A DNA stretch of 56,964 nt from positions 1 through 56,964 of the forward strand of contig WFXL01000005.1 of assembly GCA_015490605.1 (NCBI GenBank), read 5' to 3'. The position numbers were made by a program, and so were the translations under genes. Every line of letters starts with the position of its first letter. Within the stretch, counting starts at the first letter, position 1. Shown piece after piece: positions 2,699 through 30,009 of this stretch. The notes below the pieces were generated by a model. It did not search any database, was not told where the DNA came from, and was given only the letters and a program-made list of their open reading frames with translations. This DNA comes from Rhodospirillales bacterium. GTDB taxonomy: Bacteria > Pseudomonadota > Alphaproteobacteria > Geminicoccales > Geminicoccaceae.

Positions 2699-3249
2699 CG
2701 ACCGGGACCGTCCGCTCTTGGCTGCGGGCCGCAGGTGGTCTGTTGGTTGATCCTGAGGGATCTCCCGGCGCCGGCCTGATCCCGGCGAGCACCCTCGGAT
2801 CTGAAGAGCTGTCGCAAGACTCCGCGACAACGAGCTGCGAATTCCGAATTAATAGACCGCAAGCGCAGGGAGGCACGGCGGGGTTGGCGTGGCGGTCGGG
2901 GCGAGGCGCGCGCCCGATGGTGGAGCCGGTGCCCGGGCTGTGGAACACAGCTGCACGCAACGGCAGCGCGGGGCCCGGATTCCCATCGTGTCGGGTTCCG
3001 CCCTCGTGTCCGCGCGCAAGGCGAACAACCCCTTGTCGCCATCAGCTCAGGAGCTTCTGAGGGCATGTTAACCGGATGTTGGGGATTTCGCGGCAGAATC
3101 CGCGGATGATGGGAAAGGTGCGCCGCGTCCCTGTAGTCGGCGGCACCTTCTCCACCATCCGAGGCAGGATGGCAGCGAGTCGTTAAGGAGTCGTGAAACT
3201 ATCCGTCATGAGGAAGCCATGAAGCTTTTCTGACCATCGTTGGGGAGCG

Positions 3250-4630
3250 GCGCGGGTTTTCTGAAGGTGCCGCGCAGGCTTTCTGAAGGGATAACCACTC
3301 GCTCGAGGCGTGGCCGAGGCCCGGGCGCGATGGGCGGGGAGGGCGTGCTCGCGCCTGTTCTCGGAAGCCCGCGGCATGGAGTTGGCTCCGGTGGGAAGCG
3401 GCCGCGCGAAGTCGCCACAGGGGATCGGGCGGCACAGCATGACGTATCGAGGGGACAGCTGGCGCATGGGCCCGCACGGCGAAGACGCCCGGCGCTAGGG
3501 ACCACTCTGCCTGTCACACCCCGGATCCCCGAACGGCAGGGTCGGGTGGTGCGACAGGGTCCACCTGCGTCCATCATGTGCATGATCGGCTTGCTTCTGT
3601 CCCCTCCTGGGACGAGAGAGTCGGCGTGCCGCAGGGAGACGTGTCTTGATCAAAGAGCGCTCGCGTCCGGCGTCGTGAGCGGTGGATCTGCATAGCGCTG
3701 TGAGATGGGTCACGCGTAGGACGGCGTCGCGCCCATTCCCGTGACGGACGGCTCGGCATGCCGTGGCCAGGAGTGTCTTGAATAGGGTGCGCTCGTGTCC
3801 GCCGCCGTATAAGGTGAATCGGCACCCCGTCACGAGACAGGTTCCAGGTCACATTTGCCATACGCTTTGGTGAGGAACGGCTCGGCATGCTGCGGCAGGC
3901 TGTGTCTCGAGCGGGGTGGGCGTGCTTCGGCGCTGTGAGGGGCAGATCGGCATTCCGTCGCAAGAGAGGTCTTCAACACGATGCCGTCACACACGCTTGC
4001 CTGACGGACGGCTTGGCATGCCTTGGTGAGGTGCGCTCAAGCGGGATGCACTTCCAGCCTCCGGGCGACGGGTCTGCATCTCGTCACCAGATGGGGCTGG
4101 AGCAAGTTCGAGTCGCCTGCGCTTCGTAATGGATAGCTCTGCAATACCGTAGCGAGGCCGGTTCCAAGCAGCATGCACTCCTCTTCTCCGGCGTGGGGCA
4201 CCTCCACATCCCGTCGCGAGCCGGGTCTCAACAGGATGTCGTCACGTACGCTTCCGTGACAGGCGGCTCGGCATGCCACGACGTCGCCCATCTCGAACAA
4301 GGCACACACCTTTCCGGCGCCGTGAGGGACGGATCTTCATACCGCCACGCAATGGATCTTGAGCAAAATGTATGCGCGTAGGCTGCTGTGACGGAGGAGT
4401 CTCCCTATCGTGGTGCGACTGGTTTCGACCAGCATGTGCTCGTGTACGCTACCGCGAAGACGAACGGATATGCATGCCGGAGCGAGTTGCGCCTTGAGCG
4501 GGGTCGACTGGCCTCCGACACTGCCAGAACCGGAGCCGTATAGCGTCGTGAGATGAGTCACGGGCAGATAGCTACAACCGAAAGGACAGATGTTCCCGGG
4601 CGAACGACGGCACGAGATGAATGGCTCTGC
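3250..4630. repeat. Array of >=10 degenerate ~130-nt tandem repeats (core GTGAC-GGACGGCTCGGCATGCC ... AGGnGTGTCTYGA), non-coding
   Basis: Clear units start at 3611, 3741, 3870, 4001 and 4256. Their cores are GGCGTGCC at 3623 and GGCATGC(C) at 3755, 3884, 4015 and 4270, with spacing 132/129/131/255 nt. Eroded copies lie at about 3262, 3373, 3531, 4136, 4392, 4472 and 4606. No frame has the GC3 bias of real genes here. The + frames hit stops in at least unit 3741 (TGA/TAG/TGA), although the + ORF 3887..4129 spans units 3870 and 4001. Confidence 0.65.
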
Positions 4631-4733
4631 CGGCTGCGCGCCGGACGCTCGAACGGCTGAGCCGGGGGTGCGCGAGGAAGGCGGCTGGGTGACGATGCCG
4701 ACCCCCGGTGACGCGACCGTGGTGCGAATCGGC

Positions 4734-5225
4734 TCACGGGTGGGAGCAGCCACGACCGAGGCCGCTGGCCGTCTGGGCCGGACCGCCCACCACGCTCAGG
4801 GACGGTGGCATCTCCGGATGGCCGAAGAAGCCGTCGAGCCGGACGATGGCGCCATTCTGCAGCACCACCACCAGGTCCTCACCATCCACCACATAGCGGG
4901 CCACGTCCGGGTGGAAGAAGGGCGCATCCAGCACCACCAGAGCACCCGCGGGTATGGGCACCACCCGTACGGCATTGGGCGGCGGCGGCTCGATGCGGAT
5001 CTCCGCAGGCGGGCCACCGGCGGTGGCCGCGGGTGCTGGGGGTGCGGTGATCGGCGCCTGGTCGGCAGGAGTCGCCGCGGTGCGGGCCGCGGCCTGCGGC
5101 TGACGGGACGGATGATCTCGGGCGAACGGCGGCTCGAGAAGCCGGGGGATGCGGGTCTGCCGGATCGGCTGCTGGAGGTGCACCAGCCCTGGCTGTGGGT
5201 CGCCCTGCAGCGGCGACAGACGCAC
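4734..5225 (-). CDS. Hypothetical protein, Pro/Ala-rich linker plus C-terminal beta-rich module resembling the N-terminal region of T1SS/RTX-type adhesins; probably a truncated remnant
   Basis: 163-aa ORF with very high third-position GC, which is a real coding signature. It contains the motif [42 protein letters not shown]. An in-frame TAG lies directly upstream of the GTG start. Confidence 0.5.
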
Positions 5226-5229
5226 CTAG

Positions 5230-5490
5230 GCCCTCGCGGCGCTCGGCATCGACCCCGGGGGGACCGTATCGCCCTCGATGTGGGCGCCTCCACCGGCGGC
5301 TTCACCCATGTGCTGCTGCACCATGGCGCCCGGCGGGTCTGTGCGGTGGATGTGGGCTACGGCCAGCTGGACTGGCGCCTGCGGCAGGATCCCCGGATGG
5401 TAGGCTGGAGCGCACCAACGCCCGCCCTCGTGACCGCACCCCCGTCGCGGCGCCGGTAGAGCTGGCGGTCGGCATGGATGGCGCCGACGG
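5230..5490 (+). pseudogene. tlyA: Fragment of TlyA-type rRNA 2'-O-methyltransferase/hemolysin A gene (frameshifted, lacks N- and C-terminal parts)
   Basis: The pieces sit in different frames: [11 protein letters not shown] / [46 protein letters not shown] / LERTNARP. Together they match the conserved TlyA core (..[38 protein letters not shown]). Confidence 0.6.
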
Positions 5491-5668
5491 GCTGCGGAGT
5501 CCGGCAATCACCGACCCGGCGGCCTGGCCAGGAGCCGGGAACGGCTGCAGGGGTGACCACCGCCTTGCCGGGTGCGTCGTGACGGGATGTCGGAAGGCGG
5601 CGCAGCGAACGGAGGATGGCGTGGCCCGGCAGGTCGGCGGGATGGCGGCCGCAGGGCCATGGCCCGTC

Positions 5669-5697
5669 GAAAAAAGGGGCCCGGGAGACCCGGGCCC
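5669..5697 (-). terminator. Rho-independent terminator of nrdJ
   Basis: The minus strand reads GGGCCCGGG-ucuc-CCGGGCCC followed by CUUUUUUC, about 65 nt after the nrdJ stop. A second hairpin (AACGTCCCG/CGGGACGTT) lies at 5727..5752. Confidence 0.75.
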
Positions 5698-5761
5698 AAG
5701 GGACGTGGAGGAGAATACGAGGAAGGAACGTCCCGCTGCCCAACGGGACGTTATGCGCACC

Positions 5762-12062: not shown

Positions 12063-13423
<1,361 letters not shown>

Positions 13424-13430
<7 letters not shown>

Positions 13431-13948
13431 GCCGGAGCAGAGGACCCGCCACCGCGGCGCAGCTGCTCGGCCCGCACCCACGCCGTTGCCCCCGGCGGGC
13501 GCACCTGGAACACCCGCCAGCCGTTGGCGGGGTGGCCGGCGAGATGGCGCGCGGCGGCCGACAGGCTGGCAAAGCGCCGCCCGGCGATCTCCACCCAGCC
13601 GTCCCGCACCTGCCCCTCCACCTCACGGCCGCGGATGCGGGCCCGTAGGGCGGTGCCCTCGGGCAGGGGGACTCCGCCCCGCGGTCGGCGCCCAGTCGGA
13701 GTCAAGCGTGACTCAGATGACTCGCCAGACTCCATATCTCCGATAGGATTGTCAACGGAGTCCTCCATGCCCTTCAGAGTCCCCCTGTTCGACTCCGCAT
13801 GAGCGTGCGACTCCATCACCTGGCGCCGCCGCGGCGGCAGGCCGAGCCAGGCGCGCAGCAGGTCGTTGAAGGACTCGTCCGGACCTCGGAGTCGGCGACT
13901 CAGTTCCGCCACCACCTCCGGGTCCACCGGGATGCGGATCGACTCCAT
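13424..13948 (-). CDS. Small hypothetical DNA-binding-like protein: short N-terminal module, Glu/Ser-rich linker, C-terminal DUF2924/RAMA-like module
   Basis: 174-aa ORF. The C-terminal half has strong GC3. The tail GWVEIAGRRFASLSAAARHLAGHPANGWRVFQV carries the (F/Y)xSxSAAA....G...NGW..F signature I recognise from phage and R-M-associated DNA-binding modules. The linker has depressed GC3 and is packed with GAGTC/GACTC. It overlaps the gshA 3' end by 7 nt (convergent). Confidence 0.6.
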
Positions 13949-14001
13949 GGGTGCCCCTCTGCCGCTGCCGCGTTCAGAGTCCCACGGCGGTGCGTGGAGT
14001 C
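13670..14001. other. Hyper-dense cluster of 15 GANTC (all GAGTC/GACTC) sites
   Basis: Hand-counted sites start at 13670, 13699, 13710, 13719, 13728, 13758, 13777, 13791, 13809, 13872, 13889, 13897, 13941, 13977 and 13997. Thirteen lie inside the small ORF, spread over all three codon phases. Two lie in its upstream region. Confidence 0.85.
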
Positions 14002-14115
14002 AAGCGCTGCGGCCGGTCGCCGCCGCCCTTGCAGGACTGCCTCCGGCAGCCCATCTGAGCCTGCGGCCGGTCATGCGATCGCGCAGCGTCATCACCGTCA
14101 TCGTCGGGAAGCGTC

Positions 14116-15033
14116 ATGCAGATCATCGGAGCCAGATCCAACGGATCCGCCAACGGCGCCGCCGATTCGTGGATCAAGGACGGCAGCACCGCCACCTTCA
14201 TGCAGGATGTCATCGAGGCCTCGCGCGAGACGCCCGTCCTGGTGGACTTCTGGGCGCCTTGGTGCGGGCCCTGCCGCCAGCTGACGCCGGTGCTGGAGAA
14301 GGTGGTGCGCGCCGCCAAGGGGCGGGTGCGGCTGGTCAAGATCAATGTGGATGAGAATCCCGAGCTCGCCCAGCAGCTCCGCATCCAGTCGGTGCCCACC
14401 GTCTACGCCTTTCTGCAGGGCCAGCCGGTGGGCGGCTTCGCCGGGGCGCAGCCGGAAAGCCAGATCAAGCGCTTCATCGAGCAGCTTGTGGGTGGGCCGC
14501 TTGCAGCCGATGTGGAGGCGGAGCTGGAGGCCGGGCGCAGGGCGCTTTTGGAGGGGCGGGCGAGTGAGGCCTTCGTCCACTTCCGCCGGGTGGTGGACCA
14601 GCAGCCCGACCAGGGCGAGGCCTGGGGCGGGCTGGTGCGTGCGGCGCTGGCCCTCGGGCGGCCGGAGGATGCGGCCAAGCTCCTGGAACAGGCGGAAAAG
14701 CACGCTTCCGGCCATGCCGCGGTGGCGGGCGCCAGGGCGGCGTTGGAGATCGCCCGCGAGGCCGGCGAGCTTCCCGATGAGGCGAGCCTGCGCCAGCGGA
14801 TCGCCGCCGATCCCTACGACTTCGAGGCCCGCAGCCAGCTTGCCACGCGCCTGTTCCTCGCCGGCCGCTTTGAGGAGGCCTTCGAACAGCTGCTCGACAT
14901 CGTCCGGCGCGATCGCACCTGGCGCGACGATGGCGCCCGCAAGCAGCTTTTGCGGTTCTTCGACGCCCTCGGGCCCGACCATCCGGCCGCGCGCAAGGGG
15001 CGCATGCAGCTGTCGTCGCTGCTGTTCGCCTGA
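14116..15033 (+). CDS. Thioredoxin-domain plus TPR co-chaperone (YbbN/CnoX-like)
   Basis: It has the thioredoxin fold with VLVDFWAPWCGPCRQLTPVLEKV, followed by a TPR-like helical C-terminal half. Confidence 0.85.
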   Translation: MQIIGARSNGSANGAADSWIKDGSTATFMQDVIEASRETPVLVDFWAPWCGPCRQLTPVLEKVVRAAKGRVRLVKINVDENPELAQQLRIQSVPTVYAFLQGQPVGGFAGAQPESQIKRFIEQLVGGPLAADVEAELEAGRRALLEGRASEAFVHFRRVVDQQPDQGEAWGGLVRAALALGRPEDAAKLLEQAEKHASGHAAVAGARAALEIAREAGELPDEASLRQRIAADPYDFEARSQLATRLFLAGRFEEAFEQLLDIVRRDRTWRDDGARKQLLRFFDALGPDHPAARKGRMQLSSLLFA

Positions 15034-25880: not shown

Positions 25881-26755
25881 GACGGGTCACGGTTGCCGCC
25901 ATCCAGACCTGGTGCGAACCCGACCGGGCGCGCAACCTCGAGCGCCATGTCCATCTGGTGCGGCGGGCACGCATGCGCGGTGCGGACATCGTGCTGCTGC
26001 AGGAACTGTTCGAATTCCCCTATTTCCCCAAGGACCAGAAGGCTGACTATTTCGAGCTGGCCCAACCGTTCGAGGACCATCCCACCATCGCCCGCATGGC
26101 CGAACTCGCGGCCGAACTCGGGGTGGTGCTGCCGGTGAGCTTCTTCGAGCGGGCCCACAACGCCTATTTCAACTCGGTGGCGGTGATCGACGCCGATGGC
26201 CGGGTGCTGGGCATCTACCGCAAATCCCACATCCCCGACGGTCCGGGCTATCAGGAGAAGTACTACTTCAATCCCGGTGATACCGGCTTTCGCGTCTGGC
26301 ACACCCGCGCGGGCGTGCTCGGCATTGGCATCTGCTGGGACCAGTGGTTTCCCGAGGCCGCCCGCGCCATGGTGCTGATGGGCGCGGAGATGCTGCTCTA
26401 CCCCAGCGCCATCGGCTCCGAGCCCCAGGATCCCGACTATGACAGCCGCGATCACTGGCGCCGGGTGATGCAGGGCCATGCCGCCGCCAACATGGTGCCG
26501 GTGGTGGCGGCCAACCGCATCGGCCGCGAGCAGGGGGAGAGCTGCACTGTGACCTTCTACGGCAGCTCCTTTGCCGCCGATGAGACCGGCGCCATCGTCG
26601 CCGAGGGGCCGCGGGATGAGGAGGCGATCGTCACCGCCAGCTTCGATCTCGATGCCATCCGCACCCGTCGCGCCGGCTGGGGGCTGTTCCGCGACCGCCG
26701 CCCGAATCTCTATCTGCCGGTGCTGAGCCTCGACGGACGCGGCACCGCCTTCTGA
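25877..26755 (+). CDS. aguB: N-carbamoylputrescine amidase (nitrilase superfamily)
   Basis: VTVAAIQ....D...N......VR.A...GADIVLLQELFE.PYF, GIGICWDQWFPE and YPSAIGSEP. It overlaps the methyltransferase stop by ATGA. Confidence 0.9.
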   Translation: MRRVTVAAIQTWCEPDRARNLERHVHLVRRARMRGADIVLLQELFEFPYFPKDQKADYFELAQPFEDHPTIARMAELAAELGVVLPVSFFERAHNAYFNSVAVIDADGRVLGIYRKSHIPDGPGYQEKYYFNPGDTGFRVWHTRAGVLGIGICWDQWFPEAARAMVLMGAEMLLYPSAIGSEPQDPDYDSRDHWRRVMQGHAAANMVPVVAANRIGREQGESCTVTFYGSSFAADETGAIVAEGPRDEEAIVTASFDLDAIRTRRAGWGLFRDRRPNLYLPVLSLDGRGTAF

Positions 26756-26810
26756 GAGCAAGAGGTTGCGATCCACAGACGAGCCATTTCATGAAAGAGT
26801 GGGAAGAGAG

Positions 26811-27374
26811 ATGGCTACTGACCGAATGGCGACAAGTGATGCTATCTTACTCATCATGAAAGCATTGTCATTTGCCGCATGCAAGCACATGAACCATCGT
26901 CGCAAAGGAAAATTTCAGGAGCCTTACATCAATCATCTCGTGGAAGTGGCGGAGATGGTCGCACGAGCCACCGGGGGCAGGGACCCCGTAGCCGTGGCCG
27001 CAGCGCTACTGCACGATGTGGTAGAGGATACCGAGACAGAACGGGAGGAGCTGGAACAGGAATTCGGTAGCGAGATCGCAACCATCGTGGCCGAACTTAC
27101 CAAAGACAAGCATTTATCACGTGATGAAAATCGCAAGAGAGAAGTCCAAAGGGTTAAGACGTACTCTCCAAGAGCGCGTATTATACGCCTTGCCGATAAA
27201 TTGAATAATCTACAATGGCTTGATAAAAGCCCTCCTGCCAAATGGTCGCCAGAACGCTGCTTGGACTATGTGCATTTCGCCCGTCGGGTGGTGGCGGTAC
27301 TGCGCGGCACCGATGCTGAGCTTGAGGCCCAGTTCGAACAGCTGGCCAACAAGCTCGAAGCCCGATTTAAATAA
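26811..27374 (+). CDS. HD-domain (p)ppGpp hydrolase-like protein (SpoT/Mesh1-type small alarmone hydrolase)
   Basis: ALSFAACKHMNHRRKGKFQEPYINHLVEVAEMV......AALLHDVVEDT matches the RelA/SpoT hydrolase HD signature. ATG 26811 follows GGGAAGAGAG. The gene is visibly AT-richer than its surroundings. Confidence 0.75.
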   Translation: MATDRMATSDAILLIMKALSFAACKHMNHRRKGKFQEPYINHLVEVAEMVARATGGRDPVAVAAALLHDVVEDTETEREELEQEFGSEIATIVAELTKDKHLSRDENRKREVQRVKTYSPRARIIRLADKLNNLQWLDKSPPAKWSPERCLDYVHFARRVVAVLRGTDAELEAQFEQLANKLEARFK

Positions 27375-27678
27375 AGAAAACTCACGTCGTACGGAAGCAT
27401 CTAGGGCATGACCCCCTGATCCCGTGATCTTCGAAGGCGCACTGATGTGTCGCATGGGAGCTGAGCTGCCCTTGCCGAAGCATGATGATAGATGAGGACA
27501 CGGGATGGCGGCTTGCGACCACGACAACTCCACAACATCCTGACCACGACACTTGGGTCGATCTGATAGAGTTGGGTTTTCATCGTGGCGGCCCACGAAG
27601 GGATTGGGGGCGTCGTCGGCCATCTGATGGAGATAGGCCTTTACGTACGGCCCTCCCACGCCCTCTCTCAAGGGATGC

Positions 27679-30009
27679 TCAGAGGGCCGGCTCGGGCAGG
27701 CCCGATTCCTCGGCGGTGCCGCGCTCGGCCCGGCGCCGACGGCCCCGCGGGCGCGCCGCCTCGATCTCGAAGGCGGGCTGATCGTCGCGGACGGTGACCA
27801 GCACCCGGCCGCCCTTGGAAAGGCGTCCGAACAGCAGCTCGTCCGCCAGCGGTCGCTTGATGTGCTCCTGGATCACCCGGGCGAGCGGCCGGGCGCCATA
27901 GAGCGGGTCGTAGCCGCGCTCGGCCAGCCAAGCGCGCGCCGCCTCGTCCACCTCGAGAGAGACGCGGCGGTCGGCCAGCTGGGCGGCCAGCTCGCGCACG
28001 AACTTGTCCACCACCGAGCGGACGATCTCCGGCGTGAGGTGGCGGAAGGGGATGATGGCATCCAGCCGATTGCGGAACTCGGGCGTGAACAGCCGCTTGA
28101 TGGCTTCGGTATCCTCGCCCTCGCGCGCCTCGCGGGCGAAGCCGAAGGCCGGCTTGCTCATGTCGGCCGCGCCGGCGTTGGTGGTCATGATGAGGATGAC
28201 GTTGCGGAAATCGACTGTCTTGCCGTTGTTGTCGGTGAGCTTGCCGTAGTCCATCACCTGCAGGAGGATGTTGAAGACGTCCGGATGGGCCTTCTCGATC
28301 TCGTCCAGCAGCAGCACTGCATGCGGGTGCTGGTCGATGGCATCGGTCAGAAGGCCCCCCTGGTCGAAGCCCACATAGCCGGGCGGGGCGCCGATGAGGC
28401 GCGAGACCGCATGACGCTCCATATATTCGGACATGTCAAAGCGCACCAGCTCGATGCCCATGATGCGGGCGAGCTGGCGCGCCACCTCGGTCTTGCCGAC
28501 CCCGGTGGGGCCGGAGAAGAGGTAGCAGCCGATGGGCTTCTGCGGCTCCCTGAGGCCCGCACGGCTGAGCTTGATGGCGCTCGCCAGGGCCTCGATGGCC
28601 TCGTCCTGGCCGAAGACCACCGACTTGAGTTCGCCCTCGAGGTTGCGCAGGGCCTCGCGGTCGCGGTGGCCGGTGGCCTTGACCGGCACCCGGGCGATCT
28701 TGGAGACGATCTCCTCGATCTCCTTGACCCCGATCACCCGCTTGCGCTGGCTCTCGGGCTTGAGCATCTGGGCCGCGCCGGCCTCGTCGATGATGTCGAT
28801 GGCCTTGTCCGGCAGCTTGCGGTCGTGGATGTAGCGCACCGACAGCTGCACGGCTGCCCGCAGCGCCGCGGTGGTGTACTTCACCCGGTGGTGTTCCTCG
28901 AAGGAGGGCTTGAGGCCCTCGAGGATCCGGACGGTCTCGTCCTCGCTCGGCTCGGGGATGTCGATCTTCTGAAAGCGCCGCACCAGCGCGCGGTCCTTTT
29001 CGAAGTAGTTGCGGAACTCCTTGTAGGTGGTGGAGCCGATGCAGCGCAGGCTGCCGGAGGCGAGCGCCGGCTTGAGGATGTTGGAGGCATCCAGCGAGCC
29101 GCCGCTGGTGGCACCGGCGCCGATCACCGTGTGGATCTCATCGATGAAGAGGATGGCGTTGGGATCGTTCTCGAGCTCGTTGATGACCGCCTTGAGGCGC
29201 TCCTCGAAGTCGCCGCGATAGCGGGTGCCGGCCAAAAGCGCCCCCATATCAAGGGCGTAGATGACGGCGTTCTTGAGCACCTCCGGCACTTCGCCGCGCA
29301 CGATCCGCAGCGCCAGCCCCTCGGCGATGGCGGTCTTGCCCACGCCGGGATCGCCCACGAACAGGGGGTTGTTCTTGGCGCGGCGGCAGAGGATCTGGAT
29401 GGTGCGCTCGATCTCGCGCTCGCGGCCGATGAGCACGTCGATCTTGCCCGCCCGCGCCTTGGCATTGAGATTGGTGCAGTAGGCGTTGAGTGCCTCGCCT
29501 CCCTCCCGCCGTTCCTCGCGTTCGCGTTCGTCCGCTCCGCGCACGCGTCGCTCCTCGCTGAGACCGGGCTTCTTGGCGATGCCGTGGGCGATGAAGTTCA
29601 CGGCATCGAGACGGGTCATGTTCTGTTCATGGAGGAAGTGGACCGCGTGGCTCTCGCGCTCGGAGAACAGCGCCACCAGCACATTGGCGCCGGTGACCTC
29701 GCTCCGGCCGGAGGACTGCACATGGATCGCCGCACGCTGGATCACCCGCTGGAAGCCGGCCGTCGGCTTGGCCTCCACATGGCCGTCCACCACCAGCCCC
29801 TGGAGTTCATGGTCGAGGAAGTCGGTGAGCTGGGCCCGCAGCCGGTCGATCTCCACCGCACAGGCCCGCAGCACCGCCACCGCATCCGGGTCCTCGGTGA
29901 GCGCCAGCAGGAGATGCTCGAGCGTCGCGTACTCGTGCTGCCTGGCATTGGCGAGCGCCAGCGCCCGCCGCAGGGTCTTCTCGAGCGTACGCGATAGCAT
30001 CGGCATCAC
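27679..30009 (-). CDS. clpA: ATP-dependent Clp protease ATP-binding subunit ClpA
   Basis: 776-aa ORF with an N-domain ([33 protein letters not shown]), two AAA+ modules (GDPGVGKT and GPTGVGKT) and no ClpB-type middle domain. Confidence 0.95.

Follow-up and report, generated by a model that had tools for sequence, protein, structure and literature searches.

A conserved, dense array of GANTC sites in a small alphaproteobacterial gene, a candidate methylation-coupled and self-targeting regulatory element

The stretch of DNA analysed here, the 56,964 bp of contig WFXL01000005.1 from a Rhodospirillales bacterium (GenBank assembly GCA_015490605.1) and referred to below as the window, contains a small gene whose 5' part and upstream region together hold fifteen GANTC sites, the target of the methyltransferase CcrM, within 332 bp. 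That the density of this array is selected at the DNA level is strongly supported, since the array is kept in the orthologs of the gene and since resampling of synonymous codons gives far fewer sites than are observed. The product appears to share the architecture of SeqA, in that a flexible linker joins an oligomerisation domain to a predicted DNA-binding module, here of RAMA type, and the reading that we tentatively favour is that of a methylation-coupled, self-targeting regulatory array for CcrM-type sites, which would act as SeqA does on clusters of GATC.

Distribution of GANTC in the window

The sites of the array are situated at 13670, 13699, 13710, 13719, 13728, 13758, 13777, 13791, 13809, 13872, 13889, 13897, 13941, 13977 and 13997, and the sequence is GAGTC or GACTC (N = G/C) at every one of them. 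Thirteen lie inside the minus-strand open reading frame (ORF) 13424..13948 while two are located upstream of it, at positions -53 and -33 relative to the ATG. The coding sites use all three codon phases, eight being in phase 0 (seven Glu-Ser and one Asp-Ser), two in phase 1 and three in phase 2, and the G+C content at third codon positions (GC3) is 0.70 in codons 41–93, compared with 0.88 and 0.89 on either side of them in this gene and 0.88–0.89 in the neighbouring gshA and ybbN. Besides the tightly phased group listed in Table 1 there is one more short gap, of 8 bp, between 13889 and 13897. An initial annotation, made from the sequence of this stretch, had already reported the number and positions of the sites, the identity of N, the short spacings, the spread over codon phases and the lowered GC3, and the recount reproduced all of these.

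From the 1.41 sites per kb found outside the cluster 0.47 sites are expected per 332 bp (Poisson P ~6e-18 for the fifteen observed), the density of the array being ~30 times the background, and GACTC/GAGTC is the top enriched pentamer within its span. The next-densest 332-bp stretch of the window contains 4 GANTC. It was also seen that ATGGAGTC (Met-Glu-Ser), which forms the start codon region in the window (13946–13953) and in the orthologs, is repeated in frame at codons 45–47 and 72–74 in the lineage of the window, each recurrence joining an ATG to a GANTC site.

Taken as a whole the window is poor in GANTC, with 95 sites against 211 +/- 15 in dinucleotide-preserving shuffles, and the 2- to 3-fold depletion affects both GASTC (53 observed, 38 of them outside the cluster, and 114 expected) and GAWTC (42 observed and 95 expected). 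In 109 kb of DNA from the window and the flanks of the orthologs, outside the arrays, there are 1.23 GANTC per kb and never more than 4 per 332 bp. Under-representation of GANTC has been reported for Alphaproteobacteria that encode CcrM (PMC3973325). Outside the array the ratio of observed to expected sites is ~0.33 for GASTC and ~0.44 for GAWTC, despite the 69% G+C of the genome, and because GASTC is the more depleted of the two, N is A or T at half of the background sites whereas the array is wholly N = G/C. The second densest GANTC region of the window is a stretch of ~3 kb at 2700–5700, downstream of nrdJ, where the density is moderately raised with ten sites at 2818–4555, among them GAGTC at 3177 and 3188, 11 bp apart; no convincing long ORF and no Rfam match was found in this region.

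The background density also bears on the proposal of a sink or landing pad, by which the array would titrate CcrM or another reader. The locally high density of CcrM targets would suit such a role, but ~1.2–1.4 sites per kb would amount to several thousand in a genome of a few Mb, of which fifteen would be well under 1%. A methyltransferase sink, which the initial annotation had listed among its options, is thus quantitatively unlikely, and titration in general seems very improbable.

Conservation of the array and selection on the DNA sequence

To address the conservation of the cluster, as the initial annotation had proposed, sites were counted in nine orthologous loci with 50–99% protein identity and the same gshA/ybbN synteny. 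Counted from -70 to +280 relative to the start codon, each of the nine has kept 12–16 GANTC. The density stays although single sites come and go among the orthologs; the lineage of the window has sites at +48 and +56 where other lineages have one at +63 (Arg-Ser-Pro, with the rare Ser codon AGT), and the sites in the linker differ between lineages in position, in phase and in the residues that they encode (Glu-Ser, Asp-Ser, Pro-Thr-Arg, Leu-Thr-Gln or Lys-Ser-Gln).

When synonymous codons were resampled, using codon frequencies from the neighbouring genes, 2.8–7.5 sites were expected compared with 8–13 observed, and in no ortholog did more than 0.9% of the resamples match the observed number. 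The expectation falls to 1.5–2 sites if the order of the amino acids is shuffled as well, and the rare codons ACT and AGT serve to create sites. Selection has therefore shaped codon choice and the amino acid sequence of the linker alike, holding the density of sites.

These results bear directly on the simplest alternative, a by-product of an acidic, Ser-rich peptide with Glu-Ser repeats or of local base composition. Glu-Ser is indeed encoded at 7 of the 13 coding sites and every ortholog has a linker with much Glu and Ser, but the resampling rejects this explanation in every one of them, sites are found in three phases and in non-coding DNA, and triplets of sites at 9-bp spacing encode Pro-Thr-Arg, Leu-Thr-Gln or Lys-Ser-Gln in some orthologs and Glu-Ser in others. 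A peptide by-product is hence regarded as extremely improbable, and the view of the initial annotation, that selection acts on the motif as DNA, is upheld by the orthologs and the resampling together.

The selected unit is probably GANTC rather than the asymmetric GAGTC, because GATTC and GACTC as well as GAGTC and GACTC replace each other at orthologous positions and because GAWTC is depleted too; in one ortholog GATTC stands in place of GACTC at the same Asp-Ser codon pair. A link to a type IIS restriction-modification system recognising GAGTC (PleI/MlyI-type), also raised in the initial annotation, could account for the 15 of 15 sites of the window being GAGTC/GACTC. It is disfavoured by the exchange for GATTC, the mixed orientations, the depletion of GAWTC and the lack of a restriction-modification gene near the array, and appears highly improbable. 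The mutual complementarity of GAGUC and GACUC could instead suggest a role in secondary structure of mRNA or DNA, both orientations being present on one strand. The transcript of the window folds slightly better than shuffled sequences (z = -2.2), but two orthologs are without excess folding (z = -0.6 and +0.1) and this explanation likewise has very little probability.

Spacing, flanking bases and promoter-like sequences

Among 106 gaps between neighbouring sites in eight loci 9 bp is the commonest (19 gaps) followed by 12 bp, and no ortholog is without a triplet of sites that are 9 or 12 bp apart. The 9-bp triplets fall in different codon phases in different orthologs. N is G or C at 109 of the 114 sites, and the flanks show a mild preference for G at -1 with no extended consensus beyond the pentamer. 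A second exact 9-bp triplet was observed in three loci (L005 5168–5190, L008 ~2943–2965 and L009 ~328–350), in phase 2 or encoding Asp-Ser and not Glu-Ser, and the one in L005, GACTC-N4-GACTC-N4-GAGTC, is partly palindromic.

The two upstream sites are invariant in all nine loci and are situated in the conserved blocks CT(T/C)GACTC and (G/A)GA(C/G)TC(T/A), which are parted by an unconserved spacer of 20–22 bp (alignment A3). The first block includes a -35-like hexamer and the second a -10-like hexamer (Table 1), the latter 16 nt downstream of the former. In bacterium HR39 the second upstream site is GAGTC, GACTC being found elsewhere, so GA-TC is kept while N is changed. From their conservation the two blocks are assigned as the predicted promoter of the small gene, with a predicted transcript start ~20 nt upstream of the ATG; a strict scan of 13350–14200 for σ70 promoters and terminators gave no matches. 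Most orthologs have one to three extra sites in the short 5' untranslated region (5'UTR) or at codon 2. On the plus strand, at 14029–14059 of the window (A3 columns 51–99), a conserved promoter-like arrangement for ybbN was identified, consisting of TTGCAG, ~17–18 nt, CATCT(G/A)AG and then CCGGCC, with no GANTC sites in its blocks. As these blocks are without GANTC, the intergenic region seems to hold two back-to-back promoters, one with methylation sites.

GANTC in the core promoter and early transcribed region is a feature of promoters controlled by CcrM and GcrA and is found here, on the promoter as predicted. The strongest rival to the favoured reading is a CcrM/GcrA-controlled cell cycle promoter without any role for the product, in which RNA polymerase, with or without GcrA, would read methylated GANTC at -35, -10 and +2 to +30 and the extra sites would tune timing or strength. 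It is in line with the sites in the conserved -35- and -10-like blocks and, in most orthologs, in the 5'UTR or first codons, with the sites around -20 and +2 to +30 in GcrA targets of Caulobacter (PMC4647560) and with the depletion of GANTC in the window, which is typical of CcrM genomes. On the other hand, GcrA targets seldom have sites at the -10 element and GcrA of Caulobacter prefers the context YGAKTCK (PMC4647560), which the array sites do not follow, Y being present at -1 in 22 of 114 sites (19%) and K at +5 in 45 (39%), and the promoter sites having the flanks GGAGTCA and AGAGTCC. The mild preference for G at -1 is the reverse of that context. GcrA, named as a possible reader in the initial annotation, is thus a poor fit. 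Such a promoter would furthermore leave 8–10 sites out to +280 and the 9-bp triplets unexplained, and no gcrA was seen in the 57-kb window. On balance this alternative is considered possible though rather unlikely.

The 174-aa protein

Bio-informatic work on the protein suggests two domains joined by a long linker. In the AF2 model a short extended segment and two helices at the N-terminus are followed by disorder in residues 43–85 (pLDDT <50) and by a beta-rich domain in residues 95–165 (pLDDT >90). Conservation among the orthologs is good over the first 40 and the last 80 residues, with a ratio of non-synonymous to synonymous substitution rates (dN/dS) of 0.14–0.8, while the middle 50 residues are barely alignable. 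A profile of ten orthologs found 1,818 cluster representatives at E <= 1e-3, and ~12 of the top 150 align over the full length with the same two-domain layout, being members of a wider family.

The N-terminal domain was connected to the SeqA_N oligomerisation domain through a chain of profile comparisons, from clade to family and from family to SeqA. In hhalign the N-domain of the clade matches that of the family with a probability of 98% (E 5.7e-14), and the family N-domain, with the clade sequences left out, matches residues 1–37 of E. coli SeqA, the sequence of which was checked against 1xrx, with a probability of 96.7% (E 4.3e-10). With the profile of the wider family (A7) the only significant PDB matches are to SeqA (1xrx_A, E 2.8e-5 and 3fmt_A, E 6.8e-5), and two sequences of this family, P0026 and P0111, score above the Pfam cut-off for SeqA_N (PF17206). 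The window protein alone reaches 53% probability against SeqA_N and has no Pfam match to it, and the clade-only profiles (A1, A4 and A6) gave nothing significant against PDB sequences. SeqA-N (1xrx) is also the match of best probability (0.54) for the full-length model in Foldseek.

For the C-terminal domain, no match to the hemimethylated-GATC-binding domain of SeqA was found in Pfam or PDB. The C-domain appears to be of the DUF2924/RAMA/DUF4357 type, all three of which are matched in Pfam across the family, and the protein thus resembles SeqA in layout without belonging to the SeqA family proper. The ortholog P0010 matches DUF2924 with 46.9 bits and RAMA with 27.9 bits (E 2e-6), and RAMA is matched by 17 of 19 family members at E < 0.01 (best 3.6e-11), with P0111 above the cut-off at 37.8 bits. 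The DUF2924 match covers model positions 72–134 of 135 only, the helical N-terminal half being replaced by the SeqA_N-like domain. A signature invariant among the orthologs, S-L-S ... N-G-W ... L-R, parallels in a low-probability alignment the residues S315, H317, N330, W332 and R350 with which CcrM contacts phosphates. CcrM ends in a RAMA domain, with which it binds DNA at GANTC (PMC6787082, PMC9963953), and RAMA has been predicted to discriminate N6-methyladenine, its fusion to SeqA having been noted as well (PMC4738411). Searches with PADLOC and PHROGs gave similarity at the domain level only, between the C-domain and the C-termini of PDC-S14, PtuB and a type II methyltransferase model. DUF4357 and DUF2924 are mentioned in passing in the literature, where functional work on these small proteins was not found.

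The N-terminal domain also bears on a methylation-independent alternative, an operator or nucleation array whose GAGTC/GACTC pentamers would bind the product or another factor, similar to the ribbon-helix-helix (RHH) proteins omega, ParR and MetJ or to parS in parB. This could explain the close 9- and 12-bp phasing and the prevalence of N = G/C, in the window and across the orthologs, and would agree with the beta-alpha-alpha pattern of the N-domain and its weak matches to RHH and VapB-antitoxin families (VAPB_antitox E 0.21 for the window protein and RHH_1 E 0.01–0.02 for two family members). However, the wider family has an acidic strand consensus, IEID, like that of SeqA-N, a domain for oligomerisation and not for DNA binding, and the sites have no consensus past the mild G at -1. 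The identity of N is largely predicted by the GC3 of ~0.88 for phase-0 sites, GATTC substitutes at orthologous positions, and the depletion of GANTC elsewhere points to a methylation-related motif. We regard this alternative as quite unlikely. The more general proposal of the initial annotation, that the sites are operators for the encoded protein, gains support from a product combining SeqA_N and a RAMA-type domain.

A possible function of the array

According to the favoured reading the array would be the cis-regulatory region of the small gene, including the -35- and -10-like boxes, the 5'UTR, the codons of the N-domain and, above all, those of the linker. The product may oligomerise cooperatively on the GANTC that lie so close together in its own gene, depending on whether these are un-, hemi- or fully methylated. 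Passage of the replication fork would hemimethylate the array and CcrM would later remethylate it, and each time the occupancy of the promoter and the early transcribed region, and with it expression, would shift. The outcome would be an autoregulated, replication-coupled switch, SeqA-like but built for GANTC. That CcrM methylates the sites, that the product binds them and that regulation follows is what we infer, and a role as a methylation-state sensor is plausible.

A number of observations weigh against this reading. Neither ccrM nor gcrA was found in the 57-kb window in a six-frame motif search for signatures of DPPY-type methyltransferases and of GcrA. The link to CcrM-type methylation made in the initial annotation gains, indirectly, from the depletion of both GASTC and GAWTC and from the tolerance of N = T at orthologous sites. 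The window protein itself stays below the Pfam cut-offs, with 30.2 bits for DUF2924 (PF11149; cut-off 31.2) and 16.4–18.3 bits for RAMA (PF18755; E 0.002–0.009, cut-off 35.2). In Foldseek searches of PDB with AF2 models of the full-length protein and of the C-domain (pLDDT 83) there was no match at E <= 0.001 and none to CcrM (6PBD) or MPND, and hhalign aligned the C-domain only weakly to the verified C-terminus of CcrM in 6PBD (42% probability over 24 columns). The RAMA domains solved so far, in CcrM and MPND, contact the backbone without base specificity, and MPND has no preference for N6-methyladenine (PMC9963953). Finally, only 0–3 GANTC were counted in each of five family genes of greater distance, one from Sphingobium, one from Sideroxyarcus and the others from three metagenomic contigs, and none of the five has another palindrome in strong excess. 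As these five are without an array, self-targeting is not family-wide, and the array arose as an innovation of the clade.

A bolder version, which we think unlikely, is that the product is the first SeqA-type reader of CcrM methylation, a SeqA_N-RAMA protein that would polymerise on hemimethylated GANTC and use the array in its own promoter and linker codons for nucleation and autoregulation. If true, it would provide a replication-coupled epigenetic timer for the Alphaproteobacteria, thought to lack any SeqA analogue, and the disordered linker would be a dual-coding segment whose evolution is dominated by its function as DNA.

Regulation by clusters of methylation sites is well understood for Dam and SeqA in Gammaproteobacteria, while for CcrM what is known is one or a few sites per promoter with GcrA as their reader. 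According to a review Caulobacter has no SeqA homologue (PMC6393856), and in a full-text search of the literature no paper describing GANTC clusters was found. Here a motif avoided elsewhere is held densely by selection across proteins only 50% identical, in a gene that appears to pair a SeqA oligomerisation domain with the type of DNA-binding domain that CcrM has. Even with the product uninvolved this is the densest conserved GANTC array for which a record could be found. If array and product are functionally linked, the protein would be a candidate reader of GANTC methylation state and give an experimental handle on the widespread, uncharacterised small proteins of SeqA_N-RAMA type (DUF4357/DUF2924), and the gene would plainly exemplify a disordered linker whose chief role is to house cis-regulatory DNA.

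Genomic context and the wider family

The coordinates of the array, the promoter-like hexamers and the parts of the small gene are collected in Table 1.

Table 1. Features of the GANTC array and the small gene (positions in the window)
Feature	Position	Strand	Remarks
GANTC array, 15 sites	13670..14001	.	spans the predicted promoter, the 5'UTR and the first 279 coding nt
Tightly phased sub-array, four sites	13699..13732	.	gaps of 11, 9 and 9 bp
-35-like hexamer TTGACT (TTGACT or TCGACT across loci)	13998..14003	-	in CT(T/C)GACTC; overlaps site 13997–14001
-10-like hexamer GACTCT (TAGACT/TAGAGT in more distant orthologs)	13976..13981	-	overlaps site 13977–13981
Small gene, 174 aa	13424..13948	-	conserved, syntenic, between gshA and ybbN
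SeqA-N-like (ribbon-helix-helix type) oligomerisation domain, codons 1–40	13829..13948	-	4 GANTC sites
Disordered Glu/Ser-rich linker, codons 41–93	13670..13828	-	9 GANTC sites, including the 9, 9, 11 bp run
RAMA/DUF2924/DUF4357-type domain, codons 94–167	13448..13669	-	signature FxSLSAAAR..G..NGWRxF...LR

A search of 5.8 billion proteins revealed ~10 orthologs of the small gene (P0001–P0010) with 50–99% identity, all from alphaproteobacterial metagenome-assembled genomes, including bacterium HR39. Searching genome contigs for more gave none with a single protein as query and two loci with an alignment, and a search of metagenomes for further loci gave a duplicate locus only; the orthologous clade is thus small, with ~10 sequences, and is uncultured. 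The gene order is identical in every ortholog locus with enough flank. One flank is made up of nrdJ, NDUFA12, genes for a glyoxalase and a 2-hydroxyacid dehydrogenase, and gshA, the last being convergent with the small gene and overlapping its 3' end by 7 bp (13424–13430), an overlap kept in most orthologous loci (e.g. L001 5522–5528), and no terminator-like hairpin was found. The opposite flank, which diverges from the small gene, consists of ybbN (thioredoxin-TPR), a gene with a Lon N-domain and Trm112. There is no switch in GC skew at the locus and so no sign of a replication origin, and no partition ATPase is encoded near the array. Elsewhere in the window the G+C content dips locally to 0.64 at 26000–30000, compared with ~0.69–0.70 overall, and scans for Rfam families and tRNA were empty.

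In the wider family the more distant members mostly have short linkers, while that of the gshA/ybbN clade is extended, with a high content of Glu and Ser and a low GC3, which is consistent with a linker expanded to house DNA sites. Some of the distant SeqA_N-RAMA genes are located in patches with a G+C content below that of the surrounding DNA (0.57 vs 0.63 for L013 5851–6459, 0.47 vs 0.62 for L015 5851–6396 and 0.38 vs 0.50 for L016 5851–6537), and the one in Sphingobium adjoins a HicAB toxin-antitoxin pair. This suggests that the distant members may be horizontally mobile, unlike the syntenic clade.

Comparison with known systems

The closest parallel is E. coli SeqA, with which the protein shares a three-part layout and a similar size (174 and 181 aa), a SeqA_N-type N-domain being followed by a flexible linker and a C-terminal predicted DNA-binding domain, and its presumed target is likewise a dense cluster of sites for an orphan methylase of the host. 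In oriC there are 11 GATC in 245 bp, to be compared with the 15 GANTC in 332 bp found here. The two differ in that the C-domain is here of RAMA/DUF2924 type, the motif is GANTC (CcrM) and not GATC (Dam), and the cluster is located in the promoter and coding region of the gene itself.

The Dam-dependent switches of pap (Lrp) and agn43 (OxyR) use 2–3 GATC sites and global regulators. As may be the case here, methylation sites overlap the sites of a regulator near a promoter and methylation competes with binding (PMC3973325), but the present system would combine a large array with a dedicated protein encoded within it. GANTC in or near the core promoter and a GANTC-depleted genome are shared with the CcrM/GcrA promoters of Caulobacter, such as ctrA P1, mipZ and ftsZ (PMC3973325, PMC4647560), which have one to a few sites whereas the arrays described here have 12–16, mostly coding and with flanks other than YGAKTCK. 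To the RAMA domains of CcrM (6PBD) and MPND the C-domain is connected by the signature S-x-S/H ... N-G-W ... L-R and by the Pfam RAMA matches across the family of small proteins; it differs from them in standing alone, without a methyltransferase or deubiquitinase, and in having no Foldseek match.

In parS within parB, ParR/parC and the omega heptads a small oligomerising DNA-binding protein recognises many short, close sites at its own gene, which leads to autoregulation. The sites described here differ from these in being a methylation motif, and the N-domain is SeqA-N-like rather than a DNA-reading RHH. The array would belong to a known kind, the cluster of methylation sites acting as a cis element as for SeqA and GATC, and its unusual part would be that the sites are placed in the linker codons of the protein that plausibly reads them.

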